Below, piece by piece: positions 15,301 to 32,231 of a stretch of DNA of 53,845 nucleotides. Location of the stretch: IMG/VR virus record IMGVR_UViG_3300032288_000426, positions 1 to 53,845 of that record; one strand, 5' to 3'. Position numbers and translations under genes: made by a program. Source of the DNA: a virus. Its lineage: Duplodnaviria; Caudoviricetes. Position 1 is the stretch's first letter; each line of letters begins with the position of its first letter. Below the pieces are notes generated by a model, which had not been told where the DNA came from, ran no database searches, and saw only the letters and a list, made by a program, of their open reading frames with translations.

Positions 15301-16528
15301 CGGTTGTCTTAGTGAGCTGCATCACTGAGTTGTAGTGCTTGCGTGCCTCCGGGTTTTCAATCATGTACAGATACGACGCCTCTGGATGCTCAATGCCGGG
15401 GAAGTCAGGAAACTCGGCCTTCGCGTTACCAGAACGGATGATTTTGTTGAAGTGGTCTACATTGCGTGGCGTCATCTGCTCTGGCTTTGACAGCTTCAGC
15501 AAGGCGTCAGCGTAGTGCTCGGCATAGTTCAAACCCTCTGGCCCCATCGCCATGAAGTTTGCCAGCACAGGTGCGCCACCGTACTGCTCAGAAGCGCCAG
15601 TCACCCGACGCTGGAATCCAGCAGCAGGCACCAGACCAGATGCCCAACCAGCCTCTTCAGGATGGCCGAGGCCAAAGCGTGGGCCACCGTACTGACGGGA
15701 CGGCATACGCAATCCCTCACCACCAATACCAAAGATGTCGTAATCAGCGATTGAGATGTCGCCCGGCAGTGACAGCATCACGCTGCCTCGGTGTGGCTCC
15801 AGATCAATGTTCTTGGCCTCTGGTACCTCACGGCTGCGCTGGATGTCGTGCTGCAATTCCTGCTCAAGATCAAACTGCTTCTTGCTCTTACCGGCCACGC
15901 TCACAGACTCGCCCGGCTTGGCACGGACAAACTCGCCCGTCATCTGCGGGGCTACGCGCTCAGCAATGGCGTTGATCTCGGCTTTAGTCTTGGGCTTTGC
16001 GCGGGCAGGCTTCGGGCTTGGCCCCTTGGACTTCTTGGCCTCCACTGGCGCAACCTCGGCAGGCCGCATACGAGCAAGCTCCTCCGCCTGCTTGGCGGAC
16101 ATCTCAGCAACGAACTGGCGCTCAGCCAATGACAACGGACGATTGGAATCCATTAGGTTACGAGCCGCCTCAAAAGACTTCTCGCCCTTACCAACGTTGC
16201 TTGCCCTTCTGAATAGCTTGCCACCACCGGCCATGTGCACGCCGCCACCATGAGCCTTAGTGATGTCGGGACTCTTTGGCCCGAGAATGCGTCTGATCTC
16301 ATCTAATGAAGCGTTGCCACGCTCAGTTGCCGGGTTTACTGGCGCATAGCGTGCTGCCTGCTCTTCCTGCAAACGCCGGAACATCAACTCGGCCTCAAGC
16401 TGCTGCTGTGGCGTGCCCTTCGGCAACCTACCGAGAAGCTCGTCAAGATCCGGCGCGTTGCCCGCAGCCTTCGTGCCTTGGGTTGCTTTGAATACCTTTT
16501 TGATGTCTTTAGGGGTAGGCATGGTCAC
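12335..16528 (-). CDS. Large multidomain (polyvalent) protein, probably head-internal and injected
   Basis: 1397 aa between terL and portal; domains separated by xxGG linkers; PGGANYREI...FHLR...LLIDELQSDWHQ...VPDAPFK domain. Confidence 0.65.
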   Translation of the reverse strand: MTMPTPKDIKKVFKATQGTKAAGNAPDLDELLGRLPKGTPQQQLEAELMFRRLQEEQAARYAPVNPATERGNASLDEIRRILGPKSPDITKAHGGGVHMAGGGKLFRRASNVGKGEKSFEAARNLMDSNRPLSLAERQFVAEMSAKQAEELARMRPAEVAPVEAKKSKGPSPKPARAKPKTKAEINAIAERVAPQMTGEFVRAKPGESVSVAGKSKKQFDLEQELQHDIQRSREVPEAKNIDLEPHRGSVMLSLPGDISIADYDIFGIGGEGLRMPSRQYGGPRFGLGHPEEAGWASGLVPAAGFQRRVTGASEQYGGAPVLANFMAMGPEGLNYAEHYADALLKLSKPEQMTPRNVDHFNKIIRSGNAKAEFPDFPGIEHPEASYLYMIENPEARKHYNSVMQLTKTTEELGLPSGLNVRHAVSEPELRDMERGMTGFSVMQMEPGVANLKPSMHPTYSHDIPGKFLGRTDVLMPYEMTFPDTVAGIRANPKQAASEFGTLQMLGGKQIIDNQLLDELEQYRRRIKELTGKKDGGVVHMGGGGDPGEVSGDMFKPKPFTIPQPLTDLADAFKRQFSREKRSMSKPGAVTDVLLRGPAAFTVGTPMDLLGMAGEGIDYLQTKIPGLRKKASVMDQQTSVVDKRSPQMGYAPKVQVGPQGVMPYGTEHFQERLNQAGLTTGEERPLLELGTAITAPFAAQKALQYGRASAKALTPTFSDILETQLENMTAPMRMSIVPEGGPSGKLKAPANDLGFYNPAEKAALNVQRKKGQGSAFVSDLKKTPGVNDERLAELGLGDLASRPEVTREEVLAAAEQNRIPLRETVLKEGKESLEELSDNIYQLKDDMSYMDSDSREWAEADRTLTRLQKEYEAESQAKRAMFGPQTHADYNMPGGANYREIRVALPENSAPAPDLSGYTVRTVSDNKYTGQREIEIRDQFGQWVASRSGFGGSDEEALENFASTINKGQKKNYNFINSTHHGDEPNVLFHLRVADHTDVDGKKGLLIDELQSDWHQQGRDKGYGDKLRIGYSIVEQEPGFFSLQKRGLDMPVAYGTKDHVMDRARYYNAFEKGVPDAPFKDNWYQLGLKRAIKEAADTGMDRVYLTTGQRQADRYDLSKHIDELVYQNGTLHGYKNGNLVIDKVDVPEDKLSDFIGKDAAKKLLGQSSNEYGTKSLSGLDLKVGGEGMRQYYDKTYKNYLDKYAKQFGATVGETTLPAASKKMNQLSSQEIEAITKTPGWFDDFMKMSGHRGPLMLSDEQYSSIFNKLLPKYAHQHGEKVYYIDVTPKMRESAAKGQSYKDGGAVTMAEGGQLTFAKANQMLQQYVSSLGEGAGMAKGGAVDYETSFNEMLQRHVQGMAEGGEVNTYDADPDTTDGGRFIQGPAFADGGAVKSIWTVN

Positions 16529-17976
16529 ACCGCATAAGGGTTGGAGCGCTTGCGCTCGGCGTAGACGTAATCGTCATCGTCATCCTCGATTTTGGGATCT
16601 ATGTCAAGCCATCCCGCATCTCGCAAGTATCTCAGAGCCTGCGTGCAACTGTCCACGAAATCATCGTGTGTTGATTCGGGGAAAGAACAGATCTGGCTGA
16701 CAAACCCTTCAGCCCAATCCCTCACATAACCCTTACGTTGTGTGCTCTCAGGGATGTACACCCGCTTGTGCGCAATGATGTTCGCCACGATGGACAGCCG
16801 CTGGATCTTGTCTGCCTTGCCGGGGTTGTACGCACGCACTGGCAGGTGGGCACGCTGCAAGTCTTGGATCAGTGAGATGCCAGCCGCCTTATCTTCAATA
16901 AGAATAAGATCCACCTTTTTCCCGCCGGTAAAGTTTCCTCTGCCCTCTTCCTCGGGATCAGCGCCGTATGACACCTTGTACTCGTCAATAACCTTCGGAC
17001 GTAGATCCGGGTACTGAAGCCGATCCTGCCATGCATCGATGAGCATGACAGCCATGGGGCCGTCTTCGGGTTTAAACACTCCCCAAGTCGTTGCAGCCGT
17101 CGGGTCGTTGACAGTCTTTTCCGTGTACGCACAGTCATAGCTCTGTAGGATGAACTCAAACTTGGGGAAGGGTTTGTGTGGCGGCCACAGGCGGAACATC
17201 TCCCGCTTCACGATGCCGGACTCTTCAGGGTCGATCAGCTCGGCCTCGATCTCCTGCCTGCCCAGCCGGGTGCCCTCGTACTGCAGGATCTGCTTCTTGA
17301 AGTTGTCCGCCAGATTGTCGATGTTGGCATACGTCGAGGCGCGGGTGATCACCACATCGTCGCCCTCCCGGCCCACCAGCTCCACGATCAGATCCTTCGG
17401 CCTCGGGGTCGTGGTGCAGATCAGCCTGACCTTCTTACCCAGACGCAGGCCGAACTGCATCATGTCCCATGCGTCTTGTAGGTAATCCCATGCAGCCAGC
17501 TCGTCACACCAGCCACCATGGAACTGCGGGCCTCGGAAGCGCTCAGGCTCGGATGCCGGGATGCCCTTGATCAGGCTGCCGTTGATCAGCACAAGCTCAT
17601 GCAGCGCCTTGTTGTAGTCCTTGACCAGCATGTTGGGGATCACTGAGAGCAGGCCAGAGTCGCCCTCAAAGCAGGTGCCACGGACATCTGCCGAGGTCGG
17701 GGCGGCCACTACCCAGCGGGTGCCGGGGTTGCTCCATGCCCACCAGCCAAGCTCTTCAGCAGCCGTTCTGGTCTTGCCTGCGCCCCGGCCAGCCAGCATC
17801 AGCCATACGTCCCACCACTCACCGGGCGGGCGGACTTGATGATGGTGTGCTTTGGTAAGCCAAAGGGAGCGCCACTCAAAAGCAGCGCGGTAAGTAGCGG
17901 GCAGCTTGACGTATTGCTGGCGGAGCTCAGGATCCTTCAGGAGCTCAGCAACGTCGCCCATCAGGGGCTGCTCCAC
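16525..17976 (-). CDS. terL: Terminase large subunit
   Basis: Walker A AGRGAGKT, ERFRGPQFHGGWCDELAAW (Walker B), ICTTTPRP, nuclease motifs QSYDCA, LIEDKAAG, HDDFVDSCTQAL. Confidence 0.95.
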   Translation of the reverse strand: MEQPLMGDVAELLKDPELRQQYVKLPATYRAAFEWRSLWLTKAHHHQVRPPGEWWDVWLMLAGRGAGKTRTAAEELGWWAWSNPGTRWVVAAPTSADVRGTCFEGDSGLLSVIPNMLVKDYNKALHELVLINGSLIKGIPASEPERFRGPQFHGGWCDELAAWDYLQDAWDMMQFGLRLGKKVRLICTTTPRPKDLIVELVGREGDDVVITRASTYANIDNLADNFKKQILQYEGTRLGRQEIEAELIDPEESGIVKREMFRLWPPHKPFPKFEFILQSYDCAYTEKTVNDPTAATTWGVFKPEDGPMAVMLIDAWQDRLQYPDLRPKVIDEYKVSYGADPEEEGRGNFTGGKKVDLILIEDKAAGISLIQDLQRAHLPVRAYNPGKADKIQRLSIVANIIAHKRVYIPESTQRKGYVRDWAEGFVSQICSFPESTHDDFVDSCTQALRYLRDAGWLDIDPKIEDDDDDYVYAERKRSNPYAV

Positions 17977-18143: not shown

Positions 18144-18531
18144 TGGATCCCCTTGCGCGGATAGCAGAGGCGGCTAACTTTGGAGTAAATCCGCACATCA
18201 AGCAACCATCATGTTCATTTTTAGAGAAGTCAACCAATGGCGGAGCATCTTCAATCATTTGCGCCACCTTTTCACGCTCGGCTGCTGCAGCTTTGGTAAT
18301 GCGCTCATCAGCCTGCCAGCCCAGCTCAGTCAGCAGGTCTTCAATGGTGTCGCCATGGCCTGTGGCATAGCCGTGCTCGATCATCCAATGCGCCAACTTC
18401 TCACGCTCGGTTGCGGCAGCGGCCTCCAACATACGGCTGATAACCCGCAACGGGATGGCGTACTCCTGCCCATCAATCGGTGTATCGGGGTGCAAGTCTA
18501 AGAACCTGCGGATGATGTCATCCCGGTTCAT
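18136..18531 (-). CDS. Hypothetical mosaic protein (repeated AAAxEREK motif, ends AIRARG)
   Basis: 131 aa; ATGA overlap with terS. Confidence 0.65.
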   Translation of the reverse strand: MNRDDIIRRFLDLHPDTPIDGQEYAIPLRVISRMLEAAAATEREKLAHWMIEHGYATGHGDTIEDLLTELGWQADERITKAAAAEREKVAQMIEDAPPLVDFSKNEHDGCLMCGFTPKLAASAIRARGSNG

Positions 18532-19040
18532 TTCTTGGCCTGCTTAGTCAGCTCAAGGTTCTGCAGCAGGGTGTCGAAGATCGTGGTCTCCACCGTCATC
18601 GCCAGCGGGTTCTCTTTGTCCCCAGATATGATCTGCCGGTCGCCATACTTCTTCGGGTGCCACTTCGCCAGAAGCTTCAGGCGCATCTCAGCGCGGTTCC
18701 TCTGCCACGTTACATAGCCAGAATCCACAGCCTCCCCAGTCTTAGTCAGGACGTATTCAGGCGGGCTGTCGAGGATCTCCAGCGCCTCCTCAGCAATAGC
18801 GTCTGCACCCTGTTCACGGGCGCGCGCGATGGCTCCTGAAAGTGCTTCGTCGCGCCCCATCCAATCATAGATCCTCGTCCACGCTGGCATATGATCATCC
18901 CGGCATATCTGCCTCAGTGGTTCCCCATTGGAGAGGCGCTCACATATCTCTGCTGCTAGTTCTGGGGTGTACTTTGATGGTCGCCCCATCTTCTTTCGGG
19001 GCTTTGATTGCTCGGCGGCAACTGTGGTGGGATCAGACAT
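18528..19040 (-). CDS. terS: Terminase small subunit (Sf6/P22-like)
   Basis: GRPSKYTPELAAEICERLSNGEPLRQIC, AIARARE, LKLLAKWHPKKYGDR. Confidence 0.9.
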   Translation of the reverse strand: MSDPTTVAAEQSKPRKKMGRPSKYTPELAAEICERLSNGEPLRQICRDDHMPAWTRIYDWMGRDEALSGAIARAREQGADAIAEEALEILDSPPEYVLTKTGEAVDSGYVTWQRNRAEMRLKLLAKWHPKKYGDRQIISGDKENPLAMTVETTIFDTLLQNLELTKQAKK

Positions 19041-19574: not shown

Positions 19575-19760
19575 TTACTGCGGCACTGCCTTTTCCTGAT
19601 TCTCTTCGGCAACTTTGGGCAGTTGCGGCATAGCCTGCATCTGAATATTGTTGATCATCACTGCGGACTGGTTGAAAGGCAAAGCGCCCAACAATGTCAG
19701 CAGGTGATTGATCTCCTCAAGATTGTATTGCAACGTGATGCTGATGTCTTTATTTTCCAT
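19575..19760 (-). CDS. Conserved small phage protein (LGALPFNQS motif)
   Basis: Likely start MENKD at 19760 with RBS GAGG; first gene downstream of the structured RNA block. Confidence 0.65.
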   Translation of the reverse strand: MENKDISITLQYNLEEINHLLTLLGALPFNQSAVMINNIQMQAMPQLPKVAEENQEKAVPQ

Positions 19761-19780
19761 TATTTTTCCTCTGTAGTTAG

Positions 19781-20234
19781 GTTGTTGGCGAGATGTTTTG
19801 CAGTCGAGCCGACTTGTCCGTATTCTTTCAACGGTGAGCTGATAGCTGTTACTCATCACCAACACGGCTGAGGACTGTTCTTGATGGGCTGCCGGAATCG
19901 AACCGGACTTACGTCAAGCCGTAGTAACCTTGCCCACAATCCTCATGCGTCTTAGTTGTTGGGCTCGATTTGGTCTTCAGCTACGGCAAACCGGAAAGCC
20001 AGAAAACAGTCTGCGTTGACATCCTCGATTGCTGGCTTAACACCCAACACGGCTGACCACTGCTCTTTCCCCGTCTTCCTGCCAAAGCGACCTAGTGTTC
20101 TTTGGCTTTCCGGTTCTGGGTTAGTTCGCTTTCCGGGTTCGCGCCCAGCAATGATCATGCGTCTTGGTGGGTTAGGCTGCAGCGCCGGGGTGAACTGACC
20201 AAAGTCCCCGAAGCCAGCACTACAGCCCCCCATT
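19781..20234 (-). ncRNA. Putative large structured RNA: five tandem hairpin domains joined by conserved linkers
   Basis: Repeats CCAACACGGCTGA (19859-19871, 20044-20056) and TCATGCGTCTT (19943-19953, 20155-20165). The closing stems pair fully only on the minus strand (G-U wobbles), with compensatory changes between copies. TATAAT lies just upstream. Confidence 0.7.
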
Positions 20235-20237
20235 GAA

Positions 20238-20243
20238 ATTATA
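20238..20243 (-). promoter_or_regulatory. Consensus -10 box for the RNA array and late packaging operon
   Basis: TATAAT a few nt upstream of the first hairpin; no good -35, so possibly activator-dependent. Confidence 0.45.
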
Positions 20244-20245
20244 TG

Positions 20246-20392
20246 TCAGTTACAGGTGGTATTACAGTTTCCAGCGTAACAGCAGGTGGTGCAGTAGACA
20301 CACTGCCCATTGCTGCAATAGCTGTTGTAGGTGCAGGCTGCGTAGCTCATGGTGGCCGTAGCTGCCAGCCAAAGTGCGATCAGGTATTTCAT
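20246..20392 (-). CDS. Secreted cysteine-rich peptide (8 Cys)
   Basis: RBS GAAGGAGG; MKYLIALWLAATATMSYA signal peptide then ACTYNSYCSNGQCVYCTTCCYAGNCNTTCN. Confidence 0.75.
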   Translation of the reverse strand: MKYLIALWLAATATMSYAACTYNSYCSNGQCVYCTTCCYAGNCNTTCN

Positions 20393-20404
20393 ATGTCCTC
20401 CTTC

Positions 20405-20490
20405 AGGTTGTTGGGTACTCGCTGCGTCTGTCTGCAGTACCCACCGCGTAGTCGCAGCAAGTCGCACGGCAGCATCCGCTTTCCCCGTGG
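20405..20490 (-). ncRNA. Putative structured RNA or 5' leader element
   Basis: GGGGAAAGCGGAUGCUG...CAGACGCAGCGAGUACCC; GGGUACU/AGUACCC inverted repeat; ends in CCAACAAC like the array domains. Confidence 0.45.
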
Positions 20491-20500
20491 TTAATGTAAC

Positions 20501-20698
20501 TTAAACTTCTTCAACTGTAACCCTGTACTTCTTGCCGTACCGATCCTCAACGTTGAGGGTCTTCTTGGTGCTCAGGAAGGCTCCAGAAGCCGCCAGATGA
20601 AGCTGTGGGGCTGAAACGCTGGACAGTAGCTTGTCTACGTCATTGGCCTTCAGGTTGCCCCGTATAAGGGCTGCAATGTAGTCGCAATAGGCAAGCAT
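20501..20698 (-). CDS. Hypothetical protein
   Basis: 65 aa, RBS GGAGG, ends YRVTVEEV. Confidence 0.65.
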   Translation of the reverse strand: MLAYCDYIAALIRGNLKANDVDKLLSSVSAPQLHLAASGAFLSTKKTLNVEDRYGKKYRVTVEEV

Positions 20699-23945: not shown

Positions 23946-24057
23946 GATTGACTATCCTCCTCACCTGCCCTTTGTCCATTTTGTTTTTCTTTGCAATTGC
24001 GCCGATGGACTCGCCGCGCATAAATGCCTGATAGATCTCAGTGTCTAGTGCTTGCAC
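23854..24057 (-). CDS. Small HTH-like protein
   Basis: EIYQAFMRGESIGAIAKKNKMDKGQVRRIV. Confidence 0.55.
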   Translation of the reverse strand: MQALDTEIYQAFMRGESIGAIAKKNKMDKGQVRRIVNRVVEERSIGTEVVHQLQGKEADKERRVQAD

Positions 24058-24223
24058 CTCTGACCCCCATCATCATGTCGGCCATATCGAATGCAGCCTC
24101 AGCAATGAACCTACGGTTGTGTTCGCTTTCCAGTATCTCTGGGTCTACTGCAGCCATCAATCCCTGCAAAGCAAACGCAGCAAACGCACACCGCATCTGT
24201 TCTTCTGTGTCAAACATACTCAT
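24038..24223 (-). CDS. Conserved small phage protein (FAAxALQG...ADxMM family)
   Basis: Same motif family as 32614..32847. Confidence 0.65.
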   Translation of the reverse strand: MSMFDTEEQMRCAFAAFALQGLMAAVDPEILESEHNRRFIAEAAFDMADMMMGVRGASTRH

Positions 24224-24681
24224 GAGAAAGTCCTCCTCGCATATTCCGCTATCAATAAAGCTTCAGCCTTGCCGTGATCCTTCTTCAGTAAAAGCTTCGC
24301 CTGTGGGAAAGCAATCCTCGCAGCAGCAAGTGATCTTTCTTTCTCTGAGTTCAGGCTCATGGCTTTTTTCCATACTTGAGGTATAACGTAAAACACCCGA
24401 TCAGCAGAGAGTTCAGCAACAGCGCCAATAGAACCAAAGGCACGCATAAAACGCCCACTGCTAACAAGCCCTTGTTTGGGCATGACGCCCACCTGCTCAA
24501 TACAGATCGCATAGTCATCTCCCGGAGGCACCATCCTTAGAATTAACTGCTTCAAGCTTCTTGCGTCAATCTTGTCACCAACAGACTCAATGTCCTCTGC
24601 AGCAATGAACCCACCGTTATGATCAATCGCCGCAATAGCCCCAGAACGAAGTCCGGGGTCAACACCAATCCAGATAGTCAT
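24220..24681 (-). CDS. ruvC: RuvC-like Holliday junction resolvase
   Basis: Start MTIWIGVDPG; CIEQV, PQVWKK, GKAEALLIA. Confidence 0.8.
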   Translation of the reverse strand: MTIWIGVDPGLRSGAIAAIDHNGGFIAAEDIESVGDKIDARSLKQLILRMVPPGDDYAICIEQVGVMPKQGLVSSGRFMRAFGSIGAVAELSADRVFYVIPQVWKKAMSLNSEKERSLAAARIAFPQAKLLLKKDHGKAEALLIAEYARRTFS

Positions 24682-24956
24682 TGCCGTTGTATAGGTATGC
24701 GATTGAGTATTGCATTGGCTGCATTCTTCAATGCCGTGCAAAGCTCACCTTCTTCTTCATCGTCTGCAAGCTTCATCACCAACTCAGCACACGCTTCACG
24801 CTCAATTCGAATGGCCGTCTTTGTGGTTTCAATTGCCACCGTCATGATCTCAGCCTTTGCCAGCACCAGAGCATCATCAAATTCTTTTTGTGTAAAGACC
24901 TGCACGGTGCCACTGCTTGCCAAGAACTGCTTTTGGAAGTTGCTTAACTCACTCAT
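24678..24956 (-). CDS. Hypothetical protein (EREACA motif)
   Basis: ATGA-coupled within the replication operon. Confidence 0.65.
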   Translation of the reverse strand: MSELSNFQKQFLASSGTVQVFTQKEFDDALVLAKAEIMTVAIETTKTAIRIEREACAELVMKLADDEEEGELCTALKNAANAILNRIPIQRQ

Positions 24957-25144
24957 CTCCAATCCCCTTTCTCACCTCTGTTGCCCTTCGCCCATTGATC
25001 CTTGACATCAGCCCTAAGCTTCTCGTCATTATGATTTTTTTCCCACATTCGCAGAAAGTCATGAGCTTTGTCTCGGTCTTTGATCCGCATTCGGATAACC
25101 TCTCGAACGAGAGAAGTCCATATCTCGGTTTGTACATCGTTCAA
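24953..25144 (-). CDS. Hypothetical protein
   Basis: QWAKGNRGEKGDWR C-terminus; coupled to the helicase gene. Confidence 0.65.
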   Translation of the reverse strand: MNDVQTEIWTSLVREVIRMRIKDRDKAHDFLRMWEKNHNDEKLRADVKDQWAKGNRGEKGDWR

Positions 25145-26097
25145 AAATCACCTTTCTGATCAAACGCTAATGGTAGCCCATTAAACTTGTCGATGAACTG
25201 CTGACTGTCACCGTGAAAATAAAATTCAAACCACGGCTCACGCTCACCGTTTCGTTGCTTCTCGCACATCAGGTACGCATCAGGCGTCATTGGATCAACA
25301 TCCTCACCACGCTCCATGCTGTGCTGCTTTTTCTTATTGCGCCACAGAATCAGGACATTGTCCACCTGATCTGTGATTGATGACGAGCCACGGAGATCTG
25401 ACTTGCTCGGTCTTACCTCTTCGCTGGCAAGCTTTCTGATGTGATGCACCAGATGAATGTGAATGTCCTGATCACGAGCAATCGCTGTCAGCTTGTCCAC
25501 AAAGTTCTTCTGCTCGTTGTAGCTGTCTTCGCCCGGCACGCACTTCATCAGGCTGTCAACGAATACATGCTGCACACCTAGCTTAGTCGCGCAATGGTGG
25601 CAGACCGCCTCGATCATCTGAGCATTGACCGTGCCCTGCTGGTCGTACAGGTACAGCTTCTTGTCTACAAAGATCTTGAACCTGCCATAGGCGTCCCGCT
25701 TCTGTGAATCAGGCGTCTGGACGTAGTTGTTGGACTCCAGAGACTTCCCGGCAAACTGCCTAATCATCCGCTTCAAGGTGATCTTCGGCTTCATCTCAAA
25801 GCTAGCTATGCAGATCTTCTGACCCTGCTTCATCAGACCCAAGGCAACCTGCCCGGTCATCAGGGACTTGCCCGAACCATTGCTGCCAGCCCACACCGTC
25901 ACCTCACCAGGTCGGAAGGCAAAGCTGTCCATCGTAGTGCTCCAAGGCAACAAAACAGATCTGTCCACCGGAGGGTTGACCAGTTCCTCTTCAAGCTCAT
26001 CCACCCAGACACGGGCTTCTTTGACCTTGGCCTCATGGTCAGTCATCGCCAGATAGGCGTCGAAGTCAATATCGTCATCACTCAGGTACATAGCCAT
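25141..26097 (-). CDS. SF4 (DnaB/T7 gp4-like) replicative helicase, no primase domain
   Basis: FRPGEVTVWAGSNGSGKS, IASFEM, VFVDSLMK, IHLVHHIRK, DLRGSSSITDQVDNVL, CEKQRNG. Confidence 0.9.
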   Translation of the reverse strand: MAMYLSDDDIDFDAYLAMTDHEAKVKEARVWVDELEEELVNPPVDRSVLLPWSTTMDSFAFRPGEVTVWAGSNGSGKSLMTGQVALGLMKQGQKICIASFEMKPKITLKRMIRQFAGKSLESNNYVQTPDSQKRDAYGRFKIFVDKKLYLYDQQGTVNAQMIEAVCHHCATKLGVQHVFVDSLMKCVPGEDSYNEQKNFVDKLTAIARDQDIHIHLVHHIRKLASEEVRPSKSDLRGSSSITDQVDNVLILWRNKKKQHSMERGEDVDPMTPDAYLMCEKQRNGEREPWFEFYFHGDSQQFIDKFNGLPLAFDQKGDF

Positions 26098-26422
26098 CCC
26101 ATTCTCCGCTTTCGCTATCGATTATCAAATCACCACAAACGGTGATCACCCTTCCTGCTGCCGCCCGTCTTAAAGCATCGTGCAGCTTCTTTGCAACTTT
26201 GTAATCACTGCACCCAGATACATGAACCGTAAGACCCACCACAAACCGCAGATCCAGTACCTCCGGGTTCTCGGTCGGCAGGATCTCGATCTCCGGGTAA
26301 GGCAGGGTGTCTAACGCCAGATGCCAAGTCATGCAGTCAGGAGACCGTCTGTGGCTTATCCAGACGCCCTGTGGGCGCTTTTTTTCGCGCCGGAGGGTCA
26401 GGAGTGCTTGATGACCCCTCAT
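26078..26422 (-). CDS. Hypothetical replication-associated protein
   Basis: LDLRFVVGLTVHV; lies between initiator and helicase. Confidence 0.65.
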   Translation of the reverse strand: MRGHQALLTLRREKKRPQGVWISHRRSPDCMTWHLALDTLPYPEIEILPTENPEVLDLRFVVGLTVHVSGCSDYKVAKKLHDALRRAAAGRVITVCGDLIIDSESGEWDGYVPE

Positions 26423-27087
26423 GCGCCTGTAGCCCGCTTTGGAGCCCAGTCGGGTACTGCTGTCGGTTTGGCGGCAGCTTTAGTTCCACCACCAGCCTTT
26501 TCGTTACGAACCCAGTTTCGCCACGTTGCATCCCAGTCAAGCTTTACGCCCTTCGTGCCGGGCTGCGCAATCCAGAAGTCTCTAAAGCGGTCAGCAACCG
26601 CCTTTGGGTTTAGGTCAGGCCGCTCCGTTTTGCAAAACGCTGTTTGGTCTTCCGCCGGAACCCAGTCAGCAGGCAGTCGAGTTCCACGAGACTGCTTTGG
26701 TTTTGCCTCTACATTGGTTATTGGTTCTTGGTTATTGGTTGGTTGAACGTCCGTTGAACGGGCGTTGCTCCTGCGTTGAGCGGATGCCTTACCGGCTCTT
26801 GATGCTTGTTGTTTTTTAGCTTGGAAATGCTCAATTTCCCGATCCGCCCGACGGCTGACCCAGCCATCATCCGTGAGCTCAAAGAACTCCTCAAGCACCG
26901 CTTTTACTTCAGTTTCATGGTCACGCATGTTGATCTGACGAGCAACGGACGTTACACCGGCGTTCAACGGGCGCTCTTGCAAATAGTACGCATCAAGAAG
27001 CCTGCGGTATGCAAGATCCTCAAGCAAATTTAAATGTCTGGTATGGCTGGCGTAGTCGCCAATGTTGAATTGGTAATAATGCATCAT
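26419..27087 (-). CDS. Replication initiator (YdaU/DUF1376-like)
   Basis: MHYYQFNIGDYASHTRHL...AYRRLLDAYY; C-terminal RLPADW...FRDFW...DWDATWRNWVR. Confidence 0.8.
   Translation of the reverse strand: MMHYYQFNIGDYASHTRHLNLLEDLAYRRLLDAYYLQERPLNAGVTSVARQINMRDHETEVKAVLEEFFELTDDGWVSRRADREIEHFQAKKQQASRAGKASAQRRSNARSTDVQPTNNQEPITNVEAKPKQSRGTRLPADWVPAEDQTAFCKTERPDLNPKAVADRFRDFWIAQPGTKGVKLDWDATWRNWVRNEKAGGGTKAAAKPTAVPDWAPKRATGA
26714..26782. repeat. Candidate replication origin (iterons inside the initiator gene)
   Basis: TTGGTT(A/C) x4 with 7-bp period (26714-26740); GTTG-starting units at 26742, 26753, 26764 and 26775 (11-bp period, GTTGAACG consensus). Confidence 0.5.
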
Positions 27088-27120
27088 AGCCTCACGTTAT
27101 TGGCTCGTTACAAAATAGGT

Positions 27121-27176
27121 GGGACGCAGCAGGCCGGTAACGAATCGGCTTTTCAGGAGCTACCCTAGCTGTTCCC
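27121..27176 (-). ncRNA. C4-like antisense RNA
   Basis: Three-stem fold GGGAACAGC/GCUGCGUCCC, AGG-GUAGCU-CCU, GCCG-AUUCGUUAC-CGGC. The loop is complementary to GUAACGA and UAACG upstream of the initiator RBS. Promoter TTGCGT-18-TATGAT lies upstream. Confidence 0.65.
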
Positions 27177-27186
27177 GTTAATCATA

Positions 27187-27387
27187 CTAGCCGAAAATGT
27201 CGGCACGCAAGGCTTTTCTGCTGACCTTGCCTTTTGTCATGCCGCTAATCGCCACAGCCAGTGCTGGGCTTGGCAACTCCTTGCCAGAGACGATCAACGA
27301 CAACCACGTTTTGCTAATGTTCAGGGCACGAGCCATAGCGGCCTTAGATCCCCGTGGCTGGGAAGAAAAGTATTCTTGTAGAGTCAT
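27187..27387 (-). CDS. Cro/YdaS-like HTH regulator
   Basis: Start MTLQEYF; KAAMARALNISKTWLSLIVSG...LAVAISGMTKGKVSRKALRADIF. Confidence 0.8.
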   Translation of the reverse strand: MTLQEYFSSQPRGSKAAMARALNISKTWLSLIVSGKELPSPALAVAISGMTKGKVSRKALRADIFG

Positions 27388-27404
27388 AGTGAATCCTTGT
27401 TGAA

Positions 27405-27480
27405 TGCCCAATTACACCACGATAAAAAAAATTGCGCAAGAACTTGTAATGCACAATTAAATGTTGTATTGTGTGAATAC
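27405..27480. promoter_or_regulatory. Divergent promoters with a palindromic operator
   Basis: Leftward TTGCGC-17-TGTAAT with extended TG; rightward TTGTAA-17-TATTGT; CACAAT-N10-ATTGTG at 27452-27473. Confidence 0.55.
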
Positions 27481-27499
27481 TTAACTGGAGGTTACACAA

Positions 27500-27727
27500 A
27501 TGGAAGACGGCGAAAAGAAAATCACCCCATACCGCACTTCGACAGGAATCATGATCGGGCAGTTCTATGAGCGACGCCAACCCATGGAGTACACGCGTGA
27601 CATGGGGTTGATACAGGTTGCTCTGATCAGTGATCAAAACTTTTTGCGCAAGTTCTGGCTCAAGAATGTGGCTTACGTTGTAAGCGTTGTAGTCGCTATT
27701 GTGTCTCTTGCCATCTTTACAAAATGA
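27500..27727 (+). CDS. Hypothetical membrane-anchored protein
   Basis: RBS GGAGG; TPYRTSTGIMIG motif; C-terminal TM. Confidence 0.7.
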   Translation: MEDGEKKITPYRTSTGIMIGQFYERRQPMEYTRDMGLIQVALISDQNFLRKFWLKNVAYVVSVVVAIVSLAIFTK

Positions 27728-27822
27728 TGACGTTCGGCATCCTTCTGATAGGCGCTGGTCTTTGCCTGCTGGTGATTGCCATATCACTGGGCATCTACCT
27801 GATGATGGGAGATGAGGAATGA
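27724..27822 (+). CDS. Small TM peptide (not in the ORF track)
   Basis: MMTFGILLIGAGLCLLVIAISLGIYLMMGDEE; ATGA overlaps at both ends. Confidence 0.5.
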   Translation: MMTFGILLIGAGLCLLVIAISLGIYLMMGDEE

Positions 27823-28001
27823 AGCCGCCTGAAATCATAGCCGTCGCCTTTTACATAGCCATAGCCATGTTCACTCTGTACTACGGCAGCAGGGTCATGT
27901 TGGAAGAGCCAAAGCTACCTTGTGGGGTGGCAGAGATCAGCCCTGACTTTGACAGCAAGCACAGGGAGCAGTGCAGACAGATGAGGGGGCATAAGTTATG
28001 A
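27819..28001 (+). CDS. Small membrane protein (C-x-VAEISPDF...C motif)
   Basis: N-terminal TM and a Cys pair. Confidence 0.65.
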   Translation: MKPPEIIAVAFYIAIAMFTLYYGSRVMLEEPKLPCGVAEISPDFDSKHREQCRQMRGHKL

Positions 28002-28168
28002 ATGACAACGAAAAAATACAGCACGATGACTTTACGGCTTTACTGAGAGATGTACTGGAAACCAATCACGCCATAGTCAAACAAAATGCGCTGATCGTGC
28101 AGGCGCTGACAATGCCGCGACTTTTAGTAAAAGCTGATCCTGTATATAGCCCTTGGGATAAGTTATGA
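27998..28168 (+). CDS. Hypothetical protein (not in the ORF track)
   Basis: MNDNEKIQHDD...PWDKL; ATGA-coupled. Confidence 0.55.
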   Translation: MNDNEKIQHDDFTALLRDVLETNHAIVKQNALIVQALTMPRLLVKADPVYSPWDKL

Positions 28169-28404
28169 ACGAGATTGCTTTGTATAACTTGACGTTTGCC
28201 TTGCCTACCTGTGCGGTATGTAACAAGCCGGTGGAAAAGATGGACTCCATGTACCTGCCAGAGTATGACGGCAAGCTGTTTCGGGCGCACTGCCACGGAA
28301 AGACAGAGGATTACATTCTTGGCTCTTACACGATGCTGGATGCCACAGAGATTACGTTTGGCAAAGCGTTTACTGCGCCGCAATTAACAAGAGATGCGCC
28401 ATGA
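28165..28404 (+). CDS. Hypothetical Zn-binding protein
   Basis: PTCAVCNKPV...AHCHG. Confidence 0.6.
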   Translation: MNEIALYNLTFALPTCAVCNKPVEKMDSMYLPEYDGKLFRAHCHGKTEDYILGSYTMLDATEITFGKAFTAPQLTRDAP

Positions 28405-28583
28405 CTGCTATCGGATTTTCCATGTTTATTACTGGTTGGCTATTGGTCAGAACCTATGGCTCACCTTATGAAAGCACCGAAACATACAATCTTGCCGACT
28501 GGGTTGGATTGCTTATGGTGATGATTGGCTTTGTTCTTGCAAACATTGGCGTATTTATAAAGCTATGGGAGTTCATGCCATGA
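28401..28583 (+). CDS. Small 2-TM protein
   Basis: Two hydrophobic segments; ATGA-coupled. Confidence 0.55.
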   Translation: MTAIGFSMFITGWLLVRTYGSPYESTETYNLADWVGLLMVMIGFVLANIGVFIKLWEFMP

Positions 28584-28882
28584 CTGACAAACAACCCGAA
28601 GCACTGCGGCTGGCTGATAGATTGGAAGCGGATGCTCAAGGTTTAAACCTTGGCGCTGAAGGTATGGGCTGGGAGCCAAGCGCAAACAATATGCACGATG
28701 CAGCGACCGAACTACGCCGCTTGCATGAGGTGAATGCTGAGTTGGTGGAGGCGCTGAAGTTGGCGCGAGAAGAAGCCGTTGGTTGGTATGACGATTCGCG
28801 TGGGTTTGATGCTAAACGTCCTCCAGCATGGCTAAAACCGATTGATGACGCCATTGCCAAAGCTACAGGAGAACAACAATGA
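28580..28882 (+). CDS. Hypothetical protein (PEALRLAD...ELRRLHEVN...AIAKATGE)
   Basis: Start MTDKQ by ATGA overlap. Confidence 0.65.
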   Translation: MTDKQPEALRLADRLEADAQGLNLGAEGMGWEPSANNMHDAATELRRLHEVNAELVEALKLAREEAVGWYDDSRGFDAKRPPAWLKPIDDAIAKATGEQQ

Positions 28883-29040
28883 AGCTAAAACCGATTGATG
28901 GGCACAAATACTTTGTCCATCGGTACAAGTGGACGCATGAGGCTAAGCGCAAACAGTTTCTTCGTGCATTCAAGGAAGGCAAAGCAGTGTTGATACAAAG
29001 CACGAGAGATGGGTGGCTATATCAATGGGGTCAACAATGA
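28879..29040 (+). CDS. Small basic protein (not in the ORF track)
   Basis: MKLKPIDGHKYFVHRY...YQWGQQ; RBS AGGAG. Confidence 0.55.
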   Translation: MKLKPIDGHKYFVHRYKWTHEAKRKQFLRAFKEGKAVLIQSTRDGWLYQWGQQ

Positions 29041-29228
29041 CCATCACACTAACACGCGAGGAAGCGCAACAGGTGCTGGATGCGTTGGACAAGGTTTTTG
29101 ACCATAACGCTTGGGACTGTTGGCAAACAGCAGTTGATTTGCTCCGCGACCGACTCGCGCAGCCTGAACAAGAAATCGACATGAAGAAGTACCTTGCAAG
29201 CCCTAATCCTTGGAAGTTAATGCCATGA
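29037..29228 (+). CDS. Hypothetical protein (ITLTREEAQQVLDAL)
   Basis: N-terminus paralogous to 29536..29901. Confidence 0.6.
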   Translation: MTITLTREEAQQVLDALDKVFDHNAWDCWQTAVDLLRDRLAQPEQEIDMKKYLASPNPWKLMP

Positions 29229-29539
29229 CTGACCGAGAACTAATGCGACAGGCGGTGGTTGCGCTGGATTTAGCAATGCTGCATGGGGAATATCCGCAAG
29301 ACGCTGGCATATTCCGCGAAATAAGTAATGCGGCTAACGCCCTTAGCGCCCGACTCGCGCAGGAGACACCTTATGAAATAGGCCAGCGCCTGTACCAAGA
29401 AGGCAAAGGCATCTCTGACATACCGACTGCGGTTTATTCCGATAGGGATATTGCTGATGCCTTGCATGGGTATGAAACAGCCAGACGCGCTTTATACGAC
29501 ATGAACAAAGCAGCAGAACAGAATGGGGAGGAGTTGTGA
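29225..29539 (+). CDS. Hypothetical protein (MTDRELMRQA...ARLAQ)
   Basis: ATGA-coupled. Confidence 0.6.
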   Translation: MTDRELMRQAVVALDLAMLHGEYPQDAGIFREISNAANALSARLAQETPYEIGQRLYQEGKGISDIPTAVYSDRDIADALHGYETARRALYDMNKAAEQNGEEL

Positions 29540-29901
29540 TTACCTTGACCAAAGAGGAAGCGCAGCAAGTGCTGGATGCCATGACAAGAATTAGATGGGC
29601 GGCAGGTGAGCGCGATAAGAAGAACCGAGTTCGTGATTTTGATGAAGCAATGGATGTCTCTGGTGAAGCAATCGAAACCCTCCGCGCCCGACTTAGCGCA
29701 CCTGAACCGGAGCCGGTGGCTGACAAGTATCTAATGGAAGTTGAATGCACAAAGTGCGGTGCAAAGCAGGATGGCATCTTGACCGTCAACGCCCCACCAC
29801 AGCGCGAATGGCAGGGGCTGACGGATGAAGAAGCCGCTGAACTTTGCCATGCGCCTATTGCAGTTATCGAAGCCAAACTAAAGGATAAGAACAGTGGATG
29901 A
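29536..29901 (+). CDS. Hypothetical mosaic protein
   Basis: ITLTKEEAQQVLDAM...RARLSAPE...CTKC...EWQGLTDEE...IEAKLKDKN. Confidence 0.6.
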   Translation: MITLTKEEAQQVLDAMTRIRWAAGERDKKNRVRDFDEAMDVSGEAIETLRARLSAPEPEPVADKYLMEVECTKCGAKQDGILTVNAPPQREWQGLTDEEAAELCHAPIAVIEAKLKDKNSG

Positions 29902-30187
29902 CAAAGAACTGATGCAAGGCGCATATATAAAAGCACCATCCCGCTCCTACACGTTGTGGGAAAACACTATGTGCAATCCTCTTGGAGATATGAGAACACA
30001 GACGCAGAGTGCTTGGCATGACGGATACGCCAGTGCGAAAGTGGAAAAAGAATGGTATGGGCTGACGGATGAGGAAGCAGCAGAAGTTGAACGGTGGGTT
30101 GAGTTTAAAGAAGAAGGAAGCGGTCGCATACCAACCGGCAAACTAATCCGCTACATCGAAGCCAAGCTCCGGGAGAAGAACGCATGA
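29894..30187 (+). CDS. Hypothetical mosaic protein
   Basis: EWYGLTDEEAAE...IEAKLREKN. Confidence 0.6.
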   Translation: MDDKELMQGAYIKAPSRSYTLWENTMCNPLGDMRTQTQSAWHDGYASAKVEKEWYGLTDEEAAEVERWVEFKEEGSGRIPTGKLIRYIEAKLREKNA

Positions 30188-30369
30188 CTGACGCCGAATA
30201 CCAGCAGATGATGCTTGAGCGCCAGCACATACTTGAACAAGCGTTTGACAACGCATACAAAGGTTTTGCCACCGAAGAAGACTGGGCGATTCTTCGATCT
30301 GAATGTGGTCTACCCGCCCTGAAGCGAAAGGAAAATCATGTCTTTAATAGCGAAAGCAGAGTCCAATAA
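30184..30369 (+). CDS. Hypothetical protein
   Basis: YQQMMLERQ...DWAILRSECGL. Confidence 0.6.
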   Translation: MTDAEYQQMMLERQHILEQAFDNAYKGFATEEDWAILRSECGLPALKRKENHVFNSESRVQ

Positions 30370-30970
30370 CTCTTCATTCACACCAGTCCCTCCGGGGATG
30401 CACCTTGCCCGTTGCTTCCGCATTGTTGATCTTGGCACGCAAAAGTCCACCTACATGGGTAAGGATAAGTTCCTGCGCAAGATCTTGGTGCAGTTTGAGA
30501 TCCACTCAGAAGACGCACAAGGCAACCCTCTGCTGACTGAGAAGGGTGAGCCACTGTCAATCTCAAAACGCTACACCCTGTCCCTTGGTGAGAAGGCTAC
30601 CCTGTCTCAGGATCTTGAGTCATGGCGTGGGTCGGCATTCACCGCAGACGAACGCAAAGGCTTCAACCTTGAGAAGCTTTTAGGCGTCTGGGCCATGCTG
30701 AACATCACAAAGAGCGTGGGTGCCGACAACAAGGAATACACCAACATTGAGACCATCAATCCGGTGCCTGCGCAGATTAAGAAGGCTGGCCTGCCTGACC
30801 CTCATAACGAGACCATGCTCTACAGCATTGAGAAGAGTGACGAGGATACCTTCAACAAGCTATCTGAGGGTGTACGCAAGACCATTGCAAACAGCCCTGA
30901 GTATCAAGCCCGAAACAAGAACGCCCCATATGACGATGGCTTTGGCGACGATCCCAACGAACCATTCTAA
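30338..30970 (+). CDS. Putative single-stranded DNA-binding protein (OB-like, acidic tail)
   Basis: FTPVPPGMHLARCFRIVDLGTQ...; C-terminal DDGFGDDPNEPF typical of SSB tails. Confidence 0.65.
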   Translation: MSLIAKAESNNSSFTPVPPGMHLARCFRIVDLGTQKSTYMGKDKFLRKILVQFEIHSEDAQGNPLLTEKGEPLSISKRYTLSLGEKATLSQDLESWRGSAFTADERKGFNLEKLLGVWAMLNITKSVGADNKEYTNIETINPVPAQIKKAGLPDPHNETMLYSIEKSDEDTFNKLSEGVRKTIANSPEYQARNKNAPYDDGFGDDPNEPF

Positions 30971-30980
30971 GGAGAAGTAA

Positions 30981-31193
30981 ATGTACCTAGCGCATCCGCT
31001 GCTGGATTTTTTGAAGAAGGAATACGGGCTGAAGAATGACGCAGCTTTGGCGAAGGCGCTAGGTATCAAGCCTCCGACCATCAGTAAGATCCGTGCCAAC
31101 AGAAACGTTGTCAGCGCGGAGATGAAGATCATCATCCACAAGAAAACCGGGATGTCGATTGAAGACATTGAAAGCTTTTTGGGGGAGAAATGA
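30981..31193 (+). CDS. XRE-family HTH regulator
   Basis: LKNDAALAKALGIKPPTISKIR. Confidence 0.8.
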   Translation: MYLAHPLLDFLKKEYGLKNDAALAKALGIKPPTISKIRANRNVVSAEMKIIIHKKTGMSIEDIESFLGEK

Positions 31194-31492
31194 CCGTTAC
31201 TTCGACTTCGATAGAAGCCTACATCGAGCATAAAGATACCGGGAAGCTGGGGAAACAAGCGTCAGCAGTTCTTGAACGAATGTCCCCAGCCAAAGACTAC
31301 TCAAGGCGGGAGCTTGCAAGTTTGACCGGGTTTGATCTGTCTGCAATCTGCGGGCGGGTCAACGAGCTTCTAGCCCTTGGGATGCTAGAAGAACTGTCGC
31401 CCCGTAAGTGCTCAATCACAGGCAAGAACATCCATCCAATAAAACTTAGGACACCACATGTCACTCATAGCGAAACAGGTTCACTCTTCTGA
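31190..31492 (+). CDS. Winged-helix DNA-binding protein
   Basis: TSIEAY...SRRELASLTG...ICGRVNEL...RKCSITGK. Confidence 0.7.
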   Translation: MTVTSTSIEAYIEHKDTGKLGKQASAVLERMSPAKDYSRRELASLTGFDLSAICGRVNELLALGMLEELSPRKCSITGKNIHPIKLRTPHVTHSETGSLF

Positions 31493-32231
31493 AAGTACAC
31501 ACTGGTACACCCGAGAGGGGGAACCAATGTACACAGTGCCATCAAAGAAAGATGGCTCACCACGGAACACCACCCTGCGGGACGCCAGAGAGCTCAACCT
31601 GATCCCTAGCGTCACCACCATCCTGAATGTGGCCGCAAAGCCGGGGCTAACCGCTTGGCTGCAGGAACAGGCCATTCTGGCAGCCTTGACCCTTCCACGG
31701 GACGAGGATGAGCCAGAGTCAGTATGGCTAAAGCGGGTGGTACAGGACTCCAAACAGCAGGGCAAAGATGCCGCAGATAAGGGCACAGAGATCCATGAGG
31801 CCATCCAGAGCTATTACGAGGGCAAGAAGGAGTCCAGATACCCGTTCCATGTCTCAGCCTGCGTCAACCTGATTAAGAGCCACTACGGCGATCTGAACTG
31901 GATTGCTGAACGATCCTTCGGCCATGAGCTTGGGTTTGGCGGTAAGTGTGACATGCACACCACAGACGCAGGCGGAATCGTGGTGGACATCAAAACCAAA
32001 GAGTTCACAGACGCATCCAAGCCCCTATGGTACGACGAGCACCTGCTCCAGCTTGCTGCCTACCGGGTAGGGCTAGGGATGCCGGAAGCCCGGTGCGCAA
32101 ACGTCTTTGTGTCCCGTAATGACCCTGAGTTAGCTGTAATAAAAGAGTGGGAAGAGGATGATCTGAAGCGCGGCTGGGAGATGTTTACGCACCTTCTGGC
32201 GTACTGGCAACTTAAAAATCAACACGAATGA
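31458..32231 (+). CDS. PD-(D/E)XK (Cas4/RecB-like) exonuclease
   Basis: IPSVTTIL, GTEIH, FGGKCD...VVDIKT, QLAAY. Confidence 0.85.
   Translation: MSLIAKQVHSSESTHWYTREGEPMYTVPSKKDGSPRNTTLRDARELNLIPSVTTILNVAAKPGLTAWLQEQAILAALTLPRDEDEPESVWLKRVVQDSKQQGKDAADKGTEIHEAIQSYYEGKKESRYPFHVSACVNLIKSHYGDLNWIAERSFGHELGFGGKCDMHTTDAGGIVVDIKTKEFTDASKPLWYDEHLLQLAAYRVGLGMPEARCANVFVSRNDPELAVIKEWEEDDLKRGWEMFTHLLAYWQLKNQHE

Follow-up and report, generated by a model that had tools for sequence, protein, structure and literature searches.

An array of predicted RNA domains framed by two recurring adaptor helices upstream of the terminase genes of a Caudoviricetes virus

Introduction

In phage T4, the RNAs rnaC and rnaD (species 1 and species 2 RNA) are processed by host ribonucleases (RNases). 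They are structured RNAs other than transfer RNAs (tRNAs), co-transcribed with tRNAs and partly equipped with a tRNA-like 3' end; in the T4 record both are annotated as small stable RNAs directly after tRNA-Arg, and rnaC ends in the T-arm-like GGUUCGAAUCC. We describe here an array predicted to be comparable in its structured domains, its link with tRNAs and its partly tRNA-like character, found in a Caudoviricetes virus genome, IMG/VR record IMGVR_UViG_3300032288_000426 (53.8 kb, estimated 95% complete), the whole of which, 53,845 nucleotides (nt), is called the window below. The minus strand of the window carries, at 19779–20231, five hairpin domains in the order E-D-C-B-A, with repeated sequences between them. 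The five stems that the original prediction had placed there were all found, and the observation is confirmed; its interpretation, as several small RNAs cut from one precursor or one large folded RNA, is partly supported. The repeated sequences are strands of two helices, adaptor 1 and adaptor 2, which enclose the variable interiors (cargos) and recur around other cargos in many other virus loci. The T4 RNAs differ from the array in that they lack common adaptor helices and are not known to be exchanged as cassettes; comparison by eye revealed no stretch in common between rnaC or rnaD and the domains of the window, and T4 is not among the 49 phage records matched by one of the cargos. An unannotated stretch of Enterobacter phage vB_EclM_CIP9 (L002, about 3280–3430) is much like T4 rnaC: it shares the motifs GCCGAGUAGCG and GAGUAGCGUCAAC, and its 3' end resembles a T-arm.

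The RNase III sites of phage T7 are irregular helices of about 20 base pairs (bp) with an internal loop. Adaptor 1 resembles such stalks, both those of T7 early messenger RNA and the stems of precursor ribosomal RNA (rRNA), in its irregular helix of about 20 bp, its internal loop and its repetition between polycistronic units; it differs in being near-invariant across the 171 loci listed, in carrying structured cargo on top, and in sharing a strand with the next helix. The c4 RNAs of phages P1 and P7 and the CI RNA of P4 (Rfam family C4) are small RNAs cut from an operon leader, with an acceptor-like helix and an RCCA-like tail. In the family described here, A-C-Y follows a predicted acceptor-like helix in 87 of 167 modules; the C4 model gives no match even at E values up to 10, and no antisense target was found. 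In engineered tRNA scaffolds and polycistronic tRNA–guide RNA arrays, cargo is placed in or between tRNA-like frames, and host tRNA processing releases and stabilises it; those designs are man-made, and the array would be a natural counterpart with adaptor sequences of its own.

The stem-loops of put RNA in phage HK022 bind RNA polymerase. The putRNA is about 70 nt long and forms two stem-loops just downstream of the promoter PL, where long operons begin (PMC9378689); the array is alike in its two adjacent stem-loops behind a possible promoter at an operon start. It differs in that put has no cargo and no likeness of motif, none of six adaptor motifs forming the pattern in HK022 24000–32000, whereas the units of this family repeat and include tRNAs. 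Precursor CRISPR RNA and TIGR arrays share with the locus an alternation of conserved repeats and variable inserts in one transcript, which in those systems is processed at the repeats; TIGR arrays have 8–12-nt edge and loop repeats, 9-nt spacers and an adjoining Nop-domain Tas gene (PMC12045711). The inserts of those systems are guides of 9–36 nt, whereas the cargos here are structured RNAs of 20–218 nt that recur between phages, set in two different adaptors that alternate and share a strand. A CRISPR array, which has one direct repeat of 25–36 nt and unstructured spacers of nearly uniform length, was rejected on these grounds, and a TIGR-Tas system because its dimensions differ and the genome of the window contains no Nop domain (PF01798).

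None of these systems has universal adaptor helices with diverse structured cargos. In full-text literature searches, adaptor and cargo strings returned unrelated primer matches only, and the layout was found described nowhere. Some of the cargos may be among the 8495 candidate structured RNAs predicted in IMG/VR (Fremin et al., 2023; PMC10690425), and the accessible portion of the Pas/STnc100 paper (10.64898/2026.05.13.724894) contains nothing resembling the adaptors.

Results

Two adaptor helices with a common strand

Two scans of virus sequence were made, one with a first-linker pattern (at least 120 loci) and one with the junction CAGUnnUCAGYCGUGUUGG (at least 120 loci, 72 of them new), which left the sequence upstream of the junction free. 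Both were anchored to patterns and give lower bounds; the true number of loci is larger. Among the matches listed, to which the counts below also refer, at least one full adaptor-1 module is present in 171 of 196 virus loci (96 of 120 from scan 1; 71 of the 72 new loci from scan 2), amounting to 181 distinct modules. One module is found in 135 loci, two in 34 (the window included) and three in 2.

Three short sequences recur in the frame. Alpha, CYAA(G/C)ACG, is complementary to beta, CGUGUUGG, and the UGUUGG of beta is complementary also to a downstream gamma, CCAACA, so that beta has two partners, alpha backwards and gamma forwards. In adaptor 1, an outer alpha:beta helix is followed by a 2×2 loop (CA/GY) and an inner helix (UGAnnAUUG/CAGUnnUCA), the outer helix closing a stalk of about 19 positions around the interiors of domains D and B. 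In adaptor 2, UGUUGG(+2)/(+2)CCAACA forms a tRNA-acceptor-like helix, followed by A-C-Y, which closes cargos C and A. Most scan-1 loci contain G(C/U)CGUGUUGG 50–130 nt downstream and then CCAACAAC, neither of which was part of the pattern.

The second scan, in which alpha was free to vary, recovers the same arrangement. The inner 5' strand UGAnnAUU is present in 48 of the 77 junction matches of the new loci, and the eight bases before CA, in the 47 matches with full upstream sequence, are C39, Y47 (C29/U18), A38, A46, C42, A46, C45 and G47. Their consensus, CYAACACG, is the exact complement of CGUGUUGG at every position; the AAGACG form seen in the window, with a G-G mismatch, is a variant enriched by the scan-1 pattern.

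Across the 181 distinct modules, adaptor 1 is predicted to consist of 8 bp, a 2×2 loop and 9 bp with few non-pairs, which agrees with the two-turn helix, often with an internal loop, of RNase III stalks. Alpha positions 1 and 2 are C-G or U-G in 177 and 181 modules, respectively; positions 3, 4, 6, 7 and 8 are paired in 173–181; G-G stands at position 5 in 100 modules, C-G in 73; and the CA that follows alpha lies opposite G(C/U) in 180. Within the inner helix of 9 bp, covariation is seen at pairs 3 (AU 141, GU 21, GC 14, AC 5), 4 (GC 134, AU 19, CG 14), 5 (GC 152, CG 17), 7 (UG 170, CG 7, UA 4) and 9, again with very few non-pairs. The predominant U-G at inner pair 7, like the alternation of C and U opposite G in alpha, pairs on this strand only. 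Gamma is present in 167 distinct modules, and a further 29 junction matches have none within 300 nt. It was located by pattern, and the core pairs of adaptor 2 are therefore present by construction; the extension of that helix, by contrast, covaries (pair 7: UA 96, UG 32; pair 8: GC 88, AU 30). Of these 167 modules, whose gamma was found by pattern, 87 have the A-C-Y tail, as ACU or ACC.

The sequences between the domains, which the original prediction had regarded as conserved linkers, do repeat beyond chance: the window contains two copies of AAGACGCATGA, where 0.03 are expected, and two of TCAGCCGTGTTGG, where 0.01 are expected, with none of 100 shuffles reaching that number in either case. 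They are not free linkers but paired strands of the adaptor helices. CCAACAAC is weak evidence taken alone (6 copies where 2.28 are expected; 3 shuffles in 100 have as many), and three of its six copies lie in or next to the array, at 19781, 19955 and 20407. A suspected second array near 40751–40810 (GAAAGCGGATG, GTGTTGG) was discarded as chance matches inside a 609-amino-acid open reading frame (ORF).

Searched with Rfam 15, the window returned no match at gathering score, with the hammerhead, HDV-like (hepatitis delta virus), hatchet, pistol, twister, C4, pRNA, GOLLD, ROOL, Y RNA and transfer-messenger RNA models included; at E values up to 10, the sole match in 19700–20520 was a chance small nucleolar RNA on the plus strand. 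ARAGORN found no tRNA gene in the window, RF00005 matched nothing there, either at its gathering score or with E relaxed to 10, and Rfam detected only tRNAs in 13 related loci. The array thus matches no Rfam family, and these searches, together with the insert dimensions, bear out the early judgement that it is neither CRISPR nor tRNA; it is an array of repeats and cargos that is modular at the RNA level.

Cargo families

The interiors are as diverse as originally described, though they are not arbitrary: they are members of recurring, covarying families. The 184 scan-1 modules fall into 96 cargo clusters, of which 47 belong to adaptor 1, 48 to adaptor 2 and 1 to both, and 64 of which hold a single distinct sequence. 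Cargo lengths range from 20 to 218 nt in adaptor 1 (median 51 nt), and the median in adaptor 2 is 80 nt.

Cargo D belongs to the largest cluster, with 13 distinct sequences in which 5 of 27 predicted pairs are changed on both sides; its members also differ by 1-nt insertions or deletions, which excludes coding. Cargo C has 12 distinct relatives, with 12 of 25 predicted pairs changed on both sides, and within it an invariant AAGCCAG and the loop sequence CUGGCUU stay paired although two wobble changes have occurred on one side, a sign of a possible pseudoknot. Cargo B has a small tRNA-like fold with a canonical T-arm motif, GGUUCGAUUCC, the only one among the domains of the window, and belongs to a cluster of three distinct members. 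In two sequencing runs from aquatic samples (X17 and X18, probably DNA), word depth over cargo C (19981–20054) is 214–456, against roughly 0–22 in other bins, and is spread over 8–13 contigs with differing flanks; many different genomes of that habitat therefore contain a C-type cargo.

At 88–100% identity, the core of cargo A matches stretches left without annotation in 49 records of cultured phages (Aeromonas 33, Enterobacter 5, Acinetobacter 5, Salmonella 3, Serratia 2, Pseudomonas 1), where the copies, in T4-like phages and others, sit inside or beside tRNA arrays. The four-way junction attributed to this domain reappears in its single-domain fold and in 7 of the 9 copies folded. The closing helices, of 9–14 bp, differ in sequence in every phage; the three inner hairpins are invariant and speak neither for nor against the fold. 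The core, of about 52 nt, comprises three mini-hairpins in a four-way junction with a 9-nt loop, UGAAAGAAU, usually within a phage-specific closing helix directly after a tRNA (L001–L004 and L272–L275, e.g., MF448340.1, MN882610.1, PQ785583.1, KM672662.1, MW082584.1, OM982621.1).

Two smaller scaffolds were seen nested within modules. Many adaptor-2 cargos (L015, L019, L043, L045, L057, L092, L202, L214 and others) contain two hairpins with complementary loops, GGCUGAU and AGAUCAGC, likely a kissing pair, with a variable region between them. The other scaffold (GAAAGCGGAUGCUG ... GCAGCGAGUACC) has an AGUA/GAA loop-E-like motif and is used by a sixth module of the window, F, which lies upstream of the coordinates first reported. 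It also closes adaptor-2 modules in L008, L010, L061, L064 and L090, and stands immediately 5' of alpha in L213 and L242.

The cargos behave independently of one another, since their families turn up again, differently combined, in other phages. This independence favours the part of the original prediction that envisaged several small RNAs from one precursor.

Distribution among viruses and genomes

The sequencing runs that contain the stretch mostly carry a freshwater label. Searches (blastn) with the two junctions across 50,697 GenBank phage records found the adaptor in no cultured phage; the sole record was the uncultured MW202484.1, in which the junction is preceded by tRNA-Asn. In 185,579 species genomes of bacteria and archaea, the junction pattern matches 70 places, and the inner 5' strand accompanies it only in a Burkholderiales contig (L147, 2 matches) and a Bacteroidota contig (L142), both from metagenome-assembled genomes. 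The remaining matches fit chance, and no host can be named from them. The closest GenBank relative by TerL, MW202545.1 (65% identity), was examined and set aside: its 1.4-kb gap before terS is devoid of adaptor motifs and looks coding, and the gap (L270, 1994–3369) seems to contain unannotated ORFs. A universal partner protein was likewise rejected, as all-against-all clustering of 4151 ORFs from 91 loci yielded no family in every locus; the commonest cluster, an ERF-like annealing protein, is found in 25.

The array in the window

The closing stems are GGCUGUAGUGCUGG/CCGGCGCUGCAGCC for domain E, with three G-U pairs, UGAUCAUUGCU/AGCAGUGGUCA for D, UGUUGGGU/GCCCAACA for C, UGAGGAUUG/CAGUCCUCA for B and UGUUGGUGA/UCGCCAACA for A, after which come the ribosome-binding site (RBS) and the start codon, ATG, of the ORF that begins at 19760; single-domain folds return these stems (Table 1). 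Compared with shuffled sequences, the folds of E (z −3.95; 0 of 200 shuffles), B (z −2.47; 3 of 200) and A (z −2.12; 7 of 200) are stabler than expected, and that of C (z −1.63; 12 of 200) is not significant by energy alone. As energy alone is not significant for C and D, their support comes from covariation in relatives. Over the whole 491 nt, the minus strand scores z −2.87 (1 of 100 shuffles) versus z −0.94 for the plus strand (13 of 100), and the G-U pairs of the array are valid on the minus strand only, as had been claimed for its wobble pairs. A segment of cargo D, AACCGGAAAGCCA (20103–20115, minus strand), is perfectly complementary over 13 bp to UGGCUUUCCGGUU in cargo C (19989–20001, minus strand); the minimum-energy fold of E-D-C contains this pairing, which overlaps the putative pseudoknot strand of C.

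Table 1. Features of the array and its surroundings in the window
Feature	Coordinates	Strand	Remarks
Module F	20405..20487 (about)	−	Hairpin, 'GAAAGCGGAUGCUG ... GCAGCGAGUACC' sub-scaffold, 3' end CCCAACAACC; upstream of the 48-amino-acid micro-ORF
TATAAT, possible −10 element	20238..20243	−	7 nt before the first G of domain E
Domain E	20165..20231	−	18-bp bulged hairpin, 3' end ACCA; fold −38.7 kcal/mol
Alpha-1 (CCAAGACG)	20160..20167	−	5' strand of outer adaptor helix; takes in the CCA of E; 7 of 8 positions complementary to beta
Adaptor-1 inner stem UGAUCAUUG/CAGUGGUCA around cargo D	20054..20157	−	
Beta-1 (CGUGUUGG)	20044..20051	−	Partner of alpha-1, or of gamma-1 via UGUUGG
Adaptor-2 module UGUUGG...CCAACA with cargo C	19957..20049	−	Followed by tail ACUA, 19953–19956
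Alpha-2 (CUAAGACG)	19948..19955	−	
Adaptor-1 inner stem UGAGGAUUG/CAGUCCUCA around cargo B	19869..19945	−	
Beta-2 (CGUGUUGG)	19859..19866	−	
Adaptor-2 module with cargo A (four-way junction)	19783..19864	−	Tail ACCU, 19779–19782, then RBS/ATG of the ORF at 19760
CA/GY loops	20158–20159 + 20052–20053; 19946–19947 + 19867–19868	−	

Genomic context and cassette exchange

The array lies about 740 nt upstream of terS (Sf6 type, 18528–19040), with three small ORFs between, and terL follows at 16525–17976. Arrays elsewhere precede cro-like regulators (18 loci, median distance 61 nt), terL (12) and terS-like genes (9), and a terS homologue is present in 21 of 195 other virus loci. A same-strand ORF lies downstream in 155 of 160 cases; this criterion is too permissive and was not counted as evidence. 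Between F and E, the minus strand encodes a micro-ORF (20246–20392, 48 amino acids) with a signal-peptide-like start and about 10 cysteines, which has no Pfam or PHROG match; tblastn finds homologues (57–90% identity) in 8 of 195 other array-bearing loci, with two copies in L202.

In other loci, the slot of domain E is occupied by true tRNAs or short hairpins. Among 172 distinct contexts, alpha follows a hairpin in 73, an adaptor-2 module in 44, a tRNA in 4 (Met twice, Tyr, Asn) and something else in 51, the last including promoter-like repeats. For 7 of 14 tRNAs detected by ARAGORN, and for the tRNA-Asn of MW202484.1, the encoded CCA ends exactly at the start of alpha. Because true tRNAs abut alpha, at least those transcripts must be processed. 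In L010 and L075, TGnTAnAAT ends 7 nt before alpha, the same distance as that between the TATAAT of the window and E. Two promoter-like repeats end at alpha elsewhere: ACACTTGACyACnACATC, after an A/T-rich tract (L014, L023, L053, L065, L253, L261), and TTAAGTTTACAGT, often doubled (L040, L061, L063, L064, L217). Of 106 arrays, 17 have a terminator-like hairpin no more than 70 nt upstream and 16 have one no more than 130 nt downstream, and some terminator-ended units have no gene behind them (L019, L020, L251).

Cargos are swapped or deleted exactly at the adaptors. At the orthologous position of L213 and L242, F is followed by a single adaptor-1 module around a different cargo and a single adaptor-2 module around a C-type cargo, and a homologue of the ORF at 19575–19760 stands directly after the array. 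Metagenome contigs that join 19769 to 20164–20166 keep E and are devoid of D-C-B-A; one that joins 19877 to 19937 skips the 59-nt B cargo alone and keeps its stem; and another joins two CCAACAAC copies, 19960 to 20414.

Discussion

We hold with moderate confidence that the array is a polycistronic operon of small structured non-coding RNAs, probably released by host RNases at the adaptors, which double as recombination handles. Its transcript would probably begin at domain E, or a little upstream of it, and extend through the small ORFs to terS/terL. Each cargo RNA would be clamped in one of two standard adaptors, and the stalk of adaptor 1 would form first, during transcription. By analogy, adaptor 1 is built like an RNase III stalk, and a host double-strand RNase of that type may cut it near the internal loop, which would free beta to close adaptor 2. 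Given that beta is shared, the stalk would have to be cut or melted before adaptor 2 closes, and an order of processing would thereby be imposed. Adaptor 2, domain E and the tRNAs, each an acceptor-like helix followed by R-C-Y-A, appear built like RNase P substrates, and adaptor 2 might be trimmed as a tRNA or minihelix is, by RNase P at the 5' side and by 3' trimming to A-C-Y. The outcome would be separate stable small RNAs, of which A and B are tRNA-like in the models and C is probably a pseudoknot. The genome of the window contains no gene for RNase III, a CCA-adding enzyme, RtcB, Ro60 or a Nop-domain protein; any such enzyme would therefore be the host's. The adaptors, 19–27 nt long and near-invariant, could in addition serve as homology handles for cargo gain, loss and swap, and because of that length and constancy the exchange may proceed by homologous recombination.

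Several points weigh against this explanation. In place of CCA, the window has the tails ACUA after cargo C and ACCU after cargo A, and A-C-Y follows gamma in 87 of the 167 modules. The two pairings of the B-A unit are iso-energetic (−53.4 vs −53.2 kcal/mol), and the free-energy minimum uses just 3 bp of the outer helix, ACG/CGU, stacked on GUUGG/CCAAC. The alpha:beta helix is suggested by one-sided C/U changes and complementarity, alpha, beta and gamma being too invariant for two-sided covariation, and its G-G mismatch affects 100 of 181 modules, a share inflated by the scan-1 pattern. The adaptors are conserved more strictly in sequence than RNase III or RNase P are known to require. The folds of D (z −0.97; 29 of 200 shuffles) and F (z −0.84) are no stabler than shuffled sequences, and the whole-region fold favours the 13-bp D-C pairing, which would tie together two supposedly independent domains. 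A consensus scan scores no full sigma-70 site before E. Of four sequencing runs compared with the array as contigs, RNA libraries are X15 (20077–20249) and X16 (19607–19843), with 20228–20440 covered as well; their contigs are of low depth, do not extend to other parts, reveal no RNA 5' or 3' ends, may be DNA carry-over, and neither show nor exclude transcription.

The strongest alternative, which we nevertheless consider unlikely, is that the stretch acts as one intact cis-acting leader RNA, either a put-like processive antiterminator or a 5' stabiliser or insulator, with the cargos as tolerated decorations. An adaptor pair does form a two-hairpin unit of near-invariant basal sequence; arrays stand at the starts of operons, before cro-like, terL and terS-like genes; alpha follows −10-like elements by about 7 nt in two loci; and terminator-like hairpins lie near some arrays on either side, as expected under read-through control. 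Yet a leader of this kind does not fit the cargo families, which show compensatory changes and recur independently of the adaptors, as well as the true tRNAs within the same chains and the repetition of units up to three per locus; moreover, the adaptor motifs are absent from the HK022 immunity region, and some terminator-ended units have no gene behind them. The same stand-alone units, and the adaptors before cro-like genes, weaken the role in packaging that was originally suggested from the position before terS/terL, for which the terS homologues in other loci still speak.

It is improbable that the conserved sequences act as DNA, that is, as imperfect inverted repeats for a recombinase or transposase, comparable to miniature inverted-repeat transposable elements or integron attC sites, with the RNA folds as a by-product. 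Imperfect inverted repeats of 19 positions do flank the cargos, and gain, loss and exchange happen exactly there, the contig joint between two CCAACAAC copies included. The mismatches, however, are of G-U type and strand-specific, both at inner pair 7 and in alpha, and would be A-C on the other strand; no protein family is found in all loci; and the cargos are diverse conserved RNA structures, not deletion derivatives of one element. In attC sites the order is RYYYAAC...GTTRRRY, and the order here, GTTGG...CCAAC on either strand, is the reverse; an integron was rejected on this order and on the 25 of 91 loci reached by the commonest protein cluster, IntI itself not having been searched for.

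Still less probable is a novel ribozyme formed by the adaptor pair, whose self-cleavage would trim upstream RNA, such as a tRNA CCA end, in the manner of the HDV-like theta ribozymes of gut phages. The unpaired but conserved nucleotides (CA/GY and the A-C-Y tail) at a helical junction, and an alpha that starts exactly at the CCA of tRNAs, would suit such an activity, but almost all conserved nucleotides are accounted for by the two alternative helices, and neither the window nor the 13 related loci match an Rfam ribozyme model. That the stretch encodes the 93-amino-acid ORF at 19952–20233 is very improbable: its frame is open across E-D-C, but it has no Pfam or PHROG match, D-type relatives differ by 1-nt indels and paired substitutions, and in relatives parts are missing or exchanged at helix borders.

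An operon of small RNAs released at the adaptors, if that reading holds, implies that phages pass among themselves, in one standard frame, a large stock of conserved structured RNAs so far missing from catalogues, as the number of clusters among the scan-1 modules listed suggests. The adaptors would then offer a simple rule for finding new functional phage RNAs in metagenomes, and the array a natural precedent for the tRNA-scaffold and multiplexed-RNA designs of synthetic biology. More tentatively, the loci may constitute a natural RNA cassette system of phages of uncultured freshwater bacteria, with two universal adaptors and a toggling strand, one promoter, release by host tRNA and rRNA processing, and cargos (tRNA-like minihelices, pseudoknots, four-way junctions) that are traded by recombination and would serve to sequester or mislead host factors as sponges or decoys, among them defences directed at the acceptor ends or anticodon loops of tRNAs; such a system would be the RNA-gene counterpart of the integron. 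Cargo A, near-identical in Aeromonas, Enterobacter, Serratia, Pseudomonas, Acinetobacter and Salmonella phages, is directly testable in culturable systems. The operon reading, if true, would also provide a possible explanation for the "extra" RNAs of phage tRNA operons, a puzzle since the species 1 and 2 RNAs of T4.

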